From Escherichia coli (lineage in GTDB: Bacteria > Pseudomonadota > Gammaproteobacteria > Enterobacterales > Enterobacteriaceae): a stretch of 64,000 bases of DNA. The notes below the pieces were generated by a model, which did no database searches, was not told where the DNA came from, and saw nothing but the letters and a program-made list of their open reading frames with translations. Of the stretch, positions 29,805-58,075 are shown in pieces; position 1 is the stretch's first letter; each line of letters opens with the position of its first letter. The DNA lies in the NCBI RefSeq assembly GCF_013315695.1, contig NZ_CP054353.1. The stretch is one strand, 5' to 3'. A program made the position numbers and the translations under genes.

Positions 29805-30757
29805 TGCGCTGCCCCGAACTTAATATTCTCGGCAATGCGTTTCGCCGTTTGCGGCGGCAGTTCACCGACAATGGTGATTTCGGCGTTATCACGTACGCTT
29901 GTACTGACGGTTCTGCGTCCGGTGCGCAACATCTGATCGGTGCTCGATGGCGTAGCGCGGTTAACGTTTACCGAAAAGCTGAATAATCCGTCGGAATAGA
30001 GACGTGATTCGATAGGCATGTTGTCCATCGTCGGTAGCGGACGTCGACTACTGGAAACTTCGCTAAAACCCTGTGGCAACCAGGTTGGCGTCCAGCTGAA
30101 TTTAGCTTTTTCACCTACAGGAACAGAAAGCAACGGCGGCAAATTTGCCTTCGCCAGCGTCTGCATACTGCTGCTGATATCCTGATTGACATTAAAAGCA
30201 ATCACGCGAAATTGTTCCAGCGTTTCACCATCGCGATCAAGGAGATCAACCCTCATCGGTAATTTCGATTCGGTGTCCATCCACACGATGTAGCTGTAGC
30301 GTGTACCATCTCGGGCAACCACGCGAATAACTTCGCAAAGACGATCAGCAATACGCGTGCGCCCGACGGAGATAAAGTCGTAGTAAGGAGAAAGGCGTTT
30401 GAAATCGGTATAGATGAGCGATGGCAGAGAATCAACAATGTAATCGCCATTAAGCGTGAACGGTTCAAGTCCCGGTTCAAAATAGCTGATCTCATTGCCG
30501 CGCTGTACCACTTCCCGGCGCGGGCCATCCATTTGCAACAATTGTGCAAGAGGACGGTTATCGAGGCGTGCATGTCGATAACGCAGAGACTCAACACCCT
30601 GTTTATTGATGCTGATGAATGACAGCTCGTAATTCAGTGACTGACTGGCCAGGTTCATCTGCTGTAATAACGCCCCGGACGCGGGAGTGGCCGAGGCGTT
30701 AGCAGAGAATAACAGGCTACCTGTCACTAATGACATGGCAAACCAAAGTTGCTTCAT
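29801..30757 (-). CDS. rseB: sigma-E regulatory protein RseB
   Basis: 318 aa with signal peptide, operon context. Confidence 0.93.
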   Translation of the reverse strand: MKQLWFAMSLVTGSLLFSANASATPASGALLQQMNLASQSLNYELSFISINKQGVESLRYRHARLDNRPLAQLLQMDGPRREVVQRGNEISYFEPGLEPFTLNGDYIVDSLPSLIYTDFKRLSPYYDFISVGRTRIADRLCEVIRVVARDGTRYSYIVWMDTESKLPMRVDLLDRDGETLEQFRVIAFNVNQDISSSMQTLAKANLPPLLSVPVGEKAKFSWTPTWLPQGFSEVSSSRRPLPTMDNMPIESRLYSDGLFSFSVNVNRATPSSTDQMLRTGRRTVSTSVRDNAEITIVGELPPQTAKRIAENIKFGAAQ

Positions 30758-37425: not shown

Positions 37426-38013
37426 GTGACACCGACCCTTTTAAGTGCTTTTTGGACTTACACCCTGATTACCGCCATGACGCCAGGACCGAACAATATT
37501 CTCGCCCTTAGCTCAGCTACAACGCACGGATTTCGTCAGAGTACTCGCGTGCTGGCAGGGATGAGTCTGGGATTTTTAATCGTCATGTTGCTATGCGCGG
37601 GAATTTCGTTTTCACTGGCTGTTATCGACCCGGCAGCAGTGCATCTGTTGAGTTGGGCAGGGGCGGCATATATTGTCTGGCTGGCGTGGAAAATCGCTAC
37701 CAGTCCAACAAAGGAAGATGGGCTTCAGACAAAACCAATCAGTTTTTGGGCCAGCTTTGCTTTGCAGTTTGTGAACGTCAAAATCATTTTGTATGGCATT
37801 ACAGCACTGTCGACGTTTGTCCTGCCGCAAACGCAGGCGCTAAGCTGGATAATTGGCGTCAGCGTTTTGCTGGCGATGATTGGGACGTTTGGCAATGTGT
37901 GCTGGGCGCTGGCGGGGCACCTGTTTCAGCGATTGTTTCGCCAGTATGGTCGCCAGTTAAATATCGTGCTCGCGCTGCTGCTGGTCTATTGCGCGGTACG
38001 CATTTTCTATTAA
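37426..38013 (+). CDS. eamB: cysteine/O-acetylserine exporter (LysE/RhtB family)
   Basis: 195-aa multi-TM ORF with GTG start; LysE-type translocator. Confidence 0.85.
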   Translation: MTPTLLSAFWTYTLITAMTPGPNNILALSSATTHGFRQSTRVLAGMSLGFLIVMLLCAGISFSLAVIDPAAVHLLSWAGAAYIVWLAWKIATSPTKEDGLQTKPISFWASFALQFVNVKIILYGITALSTFVLPQTQALSWIIGVSVLLAMIGTFGNVCWALAGHLFQRLFRQYGRQLNIVLALLLVYCAVRIFY

Positions 38014-38067
38014 TGAAAAAAGCGGAAGAGGTCGCCCTCTTCCGCTTAGTAACTTGCTACTTAAGCC

Positions 38068-38451
38068 TTACAGGCTTTCAGTAAAGGTACGAGCGATAAC
38101 GTCGCGCTGCTGTTCCGGAGTCAGAGAGTTAAAGCGAACTGCATAACCGGATACACGGATGGTCAGCTGCGGATATTTTTCCGGATGCTTAACTGCATCT
38201 TCCAGAGTTTCACGACGCAGAACGTTTACGTTCAGGTGTTGACCACCTTCAACGCGAACTTCTGGTTTCACTTCTACTGGAACTTCACGGTACTCAATGT
38301 CACCCAGTTTGCTTACTGCAACCACTTCGTCTTCTGCAAAACCTGCTTTCGCAACGATGCAACGCGCTTCGCCTTTTTCGCTGTCCAGCAGCCAGAAAGA
38401 GTTCAGCAGATCGTCGTTAGCGGCTTTAGTAATCTGGATACCTGTAATCAT
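38068..38451 (-). CDS. grcA: autonomous glycyl radical cofactor
   Basis: 127 aa from [16 protein letters not shown]; glycyl radical motif RVSGYAV near the C-terminus. Confidence 0.93.
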
Positions 38452-38558
38452 GTGATGCCTCCCCGGCAAAATTATTTGATTTGTTCAGCCTGTCGCGGCC
38501 AATTGGTAAAACCATTGTTGCTTGAGTGTATATATACTCCTCAAACACCCTTGATTCT

Positions 38559-38625
38559 TTGATTTAAATCAATAAAAACCACATATCGAATGTGGTCACA
38601 AATGGATTTTATTGTTTTACATCAA
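38559..38625. promoter_or_regulatory. two FNR boxes in the grcA promoter region
   Basis: TTGATTTAAATCAA (38559..38572, perfect TTGAT-N4-ATCAA) and TTGTTTTACATCAA (38612..38625), centres about 53 bp apart, upstream of grcA. Confidence 0.6.
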
Positions 38626-38755
38626 CTTATGCAGGTGTGAAATTTTACCAATTTACATTTTTTTGCATGTCTTTTTGTCTATAAAATGAGCATGATTTTG
38701 TTCTGTAGAAAGAAGCAGTTAAGCTAGGCGGATTGAAGATTCGCAGGAGAGCGAG

Positions 38756-39445
38756 ATGGCTAACGAATTAACCTGGCATGATGTGCTGGCTGAAGAGAAG
38801 CAGCAACCCTATTTTCTTAATACCCTACAGACCGTCGCCAGCGAGCGGCAGTCCGGCGTCACTATCTATCCGCCACAAAAAGATGTCTTTAACGCGTTCC
38901 GCTTTACAGAGTTGGGTGACGTTAAAGTGGTGATTCTCGGCCAGGATCCTTATCACGGACCGGGACAGGCGCATGGTCTGGCATTTTCCGTTCGCCCCGG
39001 CATTGCGACACCGCCGTCACTGCTGAATATGTATAAAGAGCTGGAAAATACTATTCCCGGTTTCACCCGCCCTAATCATGGTTATCTTGAAAGCTGGGCG
39101 CGTCAGGGCGTTCTGCTACTCAATACTGTGTTGACGGTACGCGCAGGTCAGGCGCATTCCCACGCCAGCCTCGGCTGGGAAACCTTCACCGATAAAGTGA
39201 TCAGCCTGATTAACCAGCATCGCGAAGGCGTGGTGTTTTTGTTGTGGGGATCGCATGCGCAAAAGAAAGGGGCGATTATAGATAAGCAACGCCATCATGT
39301 ACTGAAAGCACCGCATCCGTCGCCGCTTTCGGCGCATCGTGGATTCTTTGGCTGCAACCATTTTGTGCTGGCAAATCAGTGGCTGGAACAACGTGGCGAG
39401 ACGCCGATTGACTGGATGCCAGTATTACCGGCAGAGAGTGAGTAA
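38756..39445 (+). CDS. ung: uracil-DNA glycosylase
   Basis: 229 aa with UDG motifs ([18 protein letters not shown]; HPSPLS). Confidence 0.97.
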
Positions 39446-57941: not shown

Positions 57942-58075
57942 ATATACTGCTTCTTCGTTTATCGTTGGGGTTTTACGGCTTTGCCGTTTAATATAGTGTG
58001 CTATTGTAGCTGGTCTTAACCGGGAGCAGGAACAGAGAATCTCCCGTATTACATTTTGAGGAAAGTCAAAACGTC

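Follow-up and report, generated by a model that had tools for sequence, protein, structure and literature searches.

A known two-site FNR promoter upstream of grcA (yfiD) in Escherichia coli: box strength, spacing and conservation across Enterobacterales

The stretch of Escherichia coli DNA that was analysed (the window, 64,000 nucleotides) carries the genes grcA (yfiD) and ung, which diverge from an AT-rich intergenic region of 304 bp (36% GC). A 1.5-kb query taken from this locus matched annotated E. coli chromosomes at 100% identity; these have eamB, grcA, ung and yfiF at this place, and the gene order is the same in MG1655. The allele in the window has 100% identity to that of strain 2014C-3075 and 99.9% to that of IAI39. 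The genome annotation describes the product of grcA as an autonomous glycyl radical cofactor. The genes and the two FNR boxes are located as follows.

38068-38451, minus strand: coding sequence of grcA (yfiD), 127 aa, placed by the list of open reading frames, read from an inner ATG, and by the annotation of the 100%-identical E. coli genomes and of MG1655.
38756-39445, plus strand: ung, the divergent neighbour, lying outside the FNR module, placed by the list of open reading frames and the E. coli annotation.
38458-38462, minus strand: Shine-Dalgarno sequence GGAGG of grcA, found by reading the sequence.
38020-38047, minus strand: intrinsic-terminator-like hairpin 3' of grcA, a 12-pair stem followed by a T run.
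38559-38572: FNR box I, a perfect palindrome, TTGATTTAAATCAA, found by a sequence scan; centre at 38565.5, position -40.5.
38612-38625: FNR box II, TTGATGTAAAACAA on the grcA strand and TTGTTTTACATCAA on the plus strand; centre at 38618.5, position -93.5.

An earlier inspection of the letters (the sequence-only reading) had claimed a perfect TTGAT-N4-ATCAA box and a second, near-consensus box about 53 bp further upstream, and both are present. Box I matches the FNR inverted repeat TTGAT-N4-ATCAA with no mismatches; box II, which is farther from grcA, deviates once, with A in place of T at position 11 (window position 38615), and the distance between the two centres is exactly 53 bp. The interval given by that reading, 38470-38755, does hold both boxes, but it spans nearly the whole grcA-ung intergenic region and does not delimit the boxes themselves. 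Box I is the only exact TTGAT-N4-ATCAA in the 64-kb window, the chance level being 0.05 on average in shuffled sequences, with at least one exact box in 5 of 100 shuffles. One-mismatch boxes by themselves are not rare in the window (five found, 2.66 expected); for a perfect box accompanied within 120 bp by a box with no more than one mismatch, analytic estimates give ~3e-4 pairs per 64 kb and ~2e-5 pairs in a 304-bp stretch of 36% GC. The observation of the two boxes is confirmed and far beyond chance, and the interpretation originally attached to it is half right.

A position weight matrix (PWM) for FNR was built from 61 published ChIP-bound sites of other promoters, both grcA sites being left out, and this matrix ranked box I first (21.1 bits) and box II second (15.8 bits) among the ~64,000 positions of the window. 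Both box sequences are given, 53 bp from each other, in Table S6 of Myers et al. 2013 as predicted sites under an FNR ChIP-seq peak in K-12, with PatSer scores of 17.25 for box I, the highest within the examined part of that table, and 13.87 for box II; the same table has both boxes overlapping IHF ChIP-chip enrichment. The published K-12 ChIP-seq data, obtained on identical sequences, speak for occupancy by FNR in vivo. The gene is grcA and the boxes are FNR sites, as the sequence-only reading had said, and its filing of them as expected biology is correct too. The next-best matches to the matrix are TTGAGGAAAGTCAA at 58056-58069, between rluD and bamD, and TTGATGCTGATGAA at 30606-30619, inside rseB; in the published table, both are predicted FNR sites lying outside FNR ChIP-seq peaks, and they provide a negative contrast to the grcA pair.

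The remaining elements of the promoter are listed below.

38525, minus strand: putative transcription start site (+1) of grcA, placed by published numbering (FNR box I at -40.5; ArcA box at -10/+22).
38531-38536, minus strand: -10 element TATATA, found by reading the sequence.
38501-38517, at +9 to +25: PdhR-like inverted repeat AATTGGTAAAACCATTG, with two mismatches to the PdhR consensus AATTGGT-N3-ACCAATT.
38504-38535, plus strand: predicted ArcA box of three direct repeats, TGGTAAAACCATTGTTGCTTGAGTGTATATAT, under the ArcA ChIP peak of Park et al. 2013, the window sequence being identical.
38577-38597, minus strand, about -73 to -48: inverted repeat GACCACAT-N5-ATGTGGTT, followed by TTTTTA, with the T run reaching 38572.

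The start site was put at 38525 because two independent published tables lead to that position: Myers et al. 2013 give the yfiD FNR site at -40.5, marked as activating, and Park et al. 2013 give a predicted ArcA box at -10/+22, where U00096.2 2714524-2714555 corresponds to window positions 38504-38535. Counted from this +1, box I is centred at -40.5 and box II at -93.5. Between the centre of box I and the first base of TATATA (38536) there are 29.5 bp, as is normal for class II promoters; a -35 hexamer is absent and, as read from the sequence, box I occupies its position, so that, using the published +1, the promoter has both the site near -41.5 over the -35 region and the -10 spacing of class II. 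A sigma-70 consensus scan of 37900-38900 found no full promoter, an outcome that is expected for an activator-dependent promoter without a -35 element and is therefore uninformative. The distance of 53 bp corresponds to ~5.05 helical turns, and both FNR dimers should therefore be on the same face of the DNA. A peak listed at 2714546 in supplementary file 2 of Myers et al. 2013 corresponds to window position 38526; it is possibly a peak of RNA polymerase or sigma-70.

This promoter is already known and has been dissected since 1998, and it contains no new kind of element. The K-12 yfiD (grcA) promoter (Green, Baldwin & Richardson 1998; Marshall et al. 2001) is the same locus and has its FNR sites at -40.5 and -93.5. 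The window matches it exactly in both 14-bp boxes and their 53-bp spacing, in the -10 element and the +1 region, and in the PdhR box and 5' UTR, but it carries the allele of a different E. coli lineage, with six substitutions in the spacer and a polymorphic patch at 38667-38682. According to later papers on Green et al. 1998, activation of the class II type comes from the proximal site (-40.5), and the distal site (-93.5) is described, including in the title of Green et al. 1998, as down-regulating even when the proximal site is occupied. Promoter variants in which box II was mutated or deleted are reported to be much stronger than the wild type, and the activity of the wild-type K-12 promoter is reported to be higher under microaerobic than under fully anaerobic conditions. 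In the b-number-keyed tables of the supplement of Myers et al. 2013, yfiD appears as 'Activated' with a value of 0.11. Barnard et al. 2003, as cited, found strong repression in synthetic tandem promoters when the upstream FNR site lay between -85 and -95. The literature calls the inhibitory contact made by FNR at -93.5 unknown. Three points are taken here from these published sources: that FNR occupies the promoter in vivo, where transcription starts, and that the two sites have opposite signs.

The pair in the window corresponds to the yfiD-type 'microaerobic' architecture of Marshall et al. 2001, in which a strong proximal site is combined with a weaker distal site at about -93.5 (21.1 vs 15.8 bits with the present matrix, and 17.25 vs 13.87 in the published scores). 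With a probability of roughly 0.93, the feature is the native, already characterised grcA (yfiD) two-site FNR promoter with a built-in brake. It has little weight as a discovery; the check corrects the sequence-only reading, in that the second box is a brake and not a co-activator. The present analysis itself shows where the sites lie, how strong they are statistically and how they rank, what geometry they form, and that both the sites and their spacing are conserved.

The sequence-only reading had spoken of a tandem FNR activation arrangement. The spacing and the activation from the proximal site agree with this description, but the distal site down-regulates according to the literature consulted; that reading had itself named a start-site mapping with the boxes at non-activating positions as evidence against it, and the published numbering does put the distal box at such a position, -93.5. 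The idea that both FNR dimers activate together, in the class III tandem style of some CRP promoters, draws on the common helical face of the two sites (53 bp, ~5.05 turns) and on the fact that tandem activator sites are known for both CRP and FNR, the yfiD and acsP2 promoters being mentioned together in one of the sources. It is nevertheless very improbable, since an upstream site that raises expression does not agree with the down-regulation reported from -93.5, with the repression by upstream FNR sites between -85 and -95 in the synthetic promoters, or with the much stronger K-12 promoter obtained when box II is mutated or deleted; judged against this literature, synergistic tandem activation does not describe grcA.

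Two further explanations concern the identity of the boxes and the gene that box II serves. CRP and FNR recognise related inverted repeats, and the boxes might accordingly belong to CRP, or to CRP and FNR jointly; the chance of this is close to negligible, as in the CRP frame the two dyads show three and five mismatches to TGTGA-N6-TCACA, both boxes read TTGA...[TA]CAA, which is the FNR-type core and not the CRP-type GTGA/TCAC, the published FNR ChIP-seq peak covers both of them, and the value of 0.11 stands against yfiD in the b-number-keyed expression table of the Myers supplement. Of the scan for FNR and CRP sites proposed by the sequence-only reading, the FNR matrix put the boxes in the first two ranks of the window, and the comparison with the CRP core gave poor matches. 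Box II might also serve ung, or another factor with an overlapping site, its effect on grcA being incidental: it lies 137 bp upstream of the ung ATG, the conservation around it goes beyond the 14-bp core, as it might at a composite site, the region overlaps with IHF ChIP-chip enrichment, and ArcA is said in the literature to disrupt FNR binding here. However, ung (b2580) was not found in the Myers et al. 2013 supplementary files that were searched, including the b-number-keyed expression tables that list yfiD (b2579), and the distance of 53 bp to box I is fixed even where the flanks have diverged, which would tie box II to the grcA promoter; a role of box II for ung or another factor, with only an incidental effect on grcA, is very improbable.

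Comparison with other FNR promoters places the brake of grcA in context. The single-site class II promoters narG, nirB, dmsA and ynfE likewise have an FNR box near -41.5 in place of the -35 element, but in the published list they have one activating site, whereas grcA has an additional upstream site, which scores lower and is inhibitory. In the melR-derived synthetic tandem FNR promoters (Barnard, Green & Busby 2003), a second site at -85 to -95 strongly represses, and box II of grcA falls into that interval. The melR-derived promoters are engineered, whereas the grcA arrangement occurs in nature and has been kept across Enterobacterales. FNR is a repressor overall at cydA and ndh, whereas at grcA the result is net activation with a ceiling. 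Table S6 of Myers et al. 2013 gives 52 bp between the FNR sites of cydA, a distance similar to the 53 bp of the grcA pair. The literature also records a use of the grcA promoter in metabolic engineering, as a part that responds to oxygen.

A GrcA scan with one genome per species returned 80 loci, and the best FNR-like pair upstream of grcA was spaced by exactly 53 bp in 55 of the 80 loci and by 52 bp in 6 more. These pairs span Escherichia, Citrobacter, Enterobacter, Klebsiella, Hafnia, Edwardsiella and Yersinia, and they are also found in Serratia, Rahnella, Dickeya, Pectobacterium, Brenneria, Erwinia and Mixta; in every 53-bp locus, GTATA keeps the same distance from box I. In an ungapped profile of 56 sequences (the 55 loci with 53-bp pairs and the window), the information content was ~1.8 bits per position in the box cores vs 0.57 bits in the spacer between them; the conservation of the cores is partly circular, the loci being anchored on box matches, and the loci are also related by descent. 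At position 11 of the distal box, 50 of the 56 sequences have A and only 3 have the consensus T. Conservation in the 56 sequences also extends to the inner 'spacer' of this box (N-TAA) and to the flanking TAA on the upstream and A-N-AA on the downstream side, and the conserved pattern around box II, TAA-N-TTGAT-N-TAAAACA-A-N-AA, exceeds the 14-bp core. Neither the circularity nor the kinship of the loci accounts for the retained non-consensus base or for the exact spacing. A pair of the 53-bp type was not found in three Pantoea loci and in one locus of a Plesiomonas MAG; a box with at most one mismatch is present in two of these four loci, and the other two have only a two-mismatch match.

The breadth of the 53-bp spacing and the conservation of a sub-optimal distal box, together with the corrected sign of the distal site, are what is newly added here to the knowledge of this promoter. 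The order-wide spacing and the imperfection of the distal box support selection on the microaerobic peak of this PFL-repair gene, and the conserved imperfection probably sets the lower affinity of box II. A more far-reaching proposal, which we consider tentative and rather unlikely, is that the brake represents an ancient selected design and not a peculiarity of K-12, with a tuned ratio of affinities and with the TGTGGTTTTT element as a part of the mechanism. If it were true, grcA expression would peak at an oxygen level set by the relative affinities of the two sites, a setting open to evolution, and the conserved TGTGGTTTTT between the boxes would be an undescribed part of the mechanism, e.g., a docking site for alpha-CTD or IHF, or, alternatively, a terminator shielding the promoter from yfiF read-through.

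The promoter in the window has the same boxes, -10 element, +1 region and PdhR box as that of MG1655, and all differences lie elsewhere; six substitutions relative to K-12 fall into the 39-bp spacer between the boxes. Both boxes are invariant in nine Escherichia alleles, and across the compared E. coli alleles no change falls into the FNR boxes, -10 element, PdhR box or 5' UTR; the substitutions cluster in two patches, 38580-38600, at the top of the inverted repeat in the middle of the spacer, and 38667-38682. The latter patch lies ~150 bp upstream of +1, and as many as 6 of 10 neighbouring bases in it are not those of K-12; no significant fold was found in this patch on either strand in comparison with shuffled sequences. 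This allele is expected to behave like that of K-12 because it shares with it both boxes and their spacing, the -10 element, the +1 region, the PdhR box and the 5' UTR.

The inverted repeat between the boxes scores as terminator-like on the grcA strand, and the predicted hairpin is modest (-9.5 kcal/mol, z -2.8). The motif [CC]AC...GTGTGGTTTTT is conserved in Enterobacteriaceae, with an A-rich stretch instead of it in the Yersinia, Serratia and Hafnia loci. Covariation within the repeat did not rise above that of shuffled sequences (0.215 vs 0.198, with 87 of 500 shuffles as high). A role as an RNA structure or terminator is unsupported, given the modest stability, the instability of the structure in most genera and the lack of significant covariation. 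A compensatory change that seems to distinguish this allele from K-12 is only apparent, being bridged by mismatch-bearing alleles. The repeat is kept here as a conserved motif; it could be a docking site for alpha-CTD or IHF, serve in DNA bending or act as a shield against read-through. An Rfam scan of 38300-38900 at E<=10 returned only three chance matches, all to eukaryotic families, and no convincing match to IHF (WATCAANNNNTTR), ArcA, TyrR or NarL motifs overlapping box II was seen by eye.

Two further regulators have sites near the start of transcription. The PdhR-like block is conserved in Enterobacteriaceae, and the repression of yfiD by PdhR is on record in the literature consulted, where the regulation of yfiD is summarised as 'ArcA (+) FNR (+/-) PdhR (-)'. 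ArcA is said to work via disruption of FNR binding at yfiD, and the published sign of its effect disagrees, being '+' as cited from Wyborn 2002 and '-' in Park 2013. The predicted ArcA triple repeat (38504-38535) and the PdhR-like box (38501-38517) overlap each other and the start site; the binding of ArcA, PdhR and RNA polymerase should therefore be mutually exclusive.

The grcA product is reported to repair pyruvate formate-lyase damaged by oxygen, and for the work of its two-site promoter with a built-in brake, occupancy in the order of affinity is the best-supported model. As oxygen falls, active FNR dimers would fill the perfect box I at -40.5 first, and FNR bound there, in place of a -35 element, would activate RNA polymerase as at class II promoters. 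Under full anaerobiosis, abundant active FNR would also fill the weaker box II at -93.5, and FNR on box II, five turns upstream on the same face, would damp the activation; expression would therefore peak microaerobically. ArcA would add a redox input, and PdhR, a pyruvate-sensing repressor, an input from pyruvate.

FNR-like pairs of another spacing were also seen. In seven loci of Pasteurellaceae (L045, L048, L052, L053, L055, L060 and L066), FNR-like boxes lie 42-44 bp apart (~4 turns), 80-140 bp upstream of grcA, and the upstream box is the better one, often perfect. Assuming that the conserved extended -10-like TGATAAAAT is the -10 element, these boxes would be centred near -90 and -47.5.

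Directly 5' of the grcA start codon, the sequence reads …CATCACATG, with ACA at 38451-38453 on the minus strand, overlapping the A of the ATG; ACA is the cleavage motif of MazF. The yfiD mRNA is reportedly one of those made leaderless by MazF, as work of 2011 by Vesper and colleagues is said to have found. A 2009 paper has YfiD among the proteins still produced after MazF induction. In published E. coli 3'-end data, one 3' end lies on the minus strand, antisense to ung, at U00096.3 2717222, approximately window position 39224 (the coordinate was converted from the grcA start), which suggests that transcription leaving yfiF heads toward the grcA promoter.
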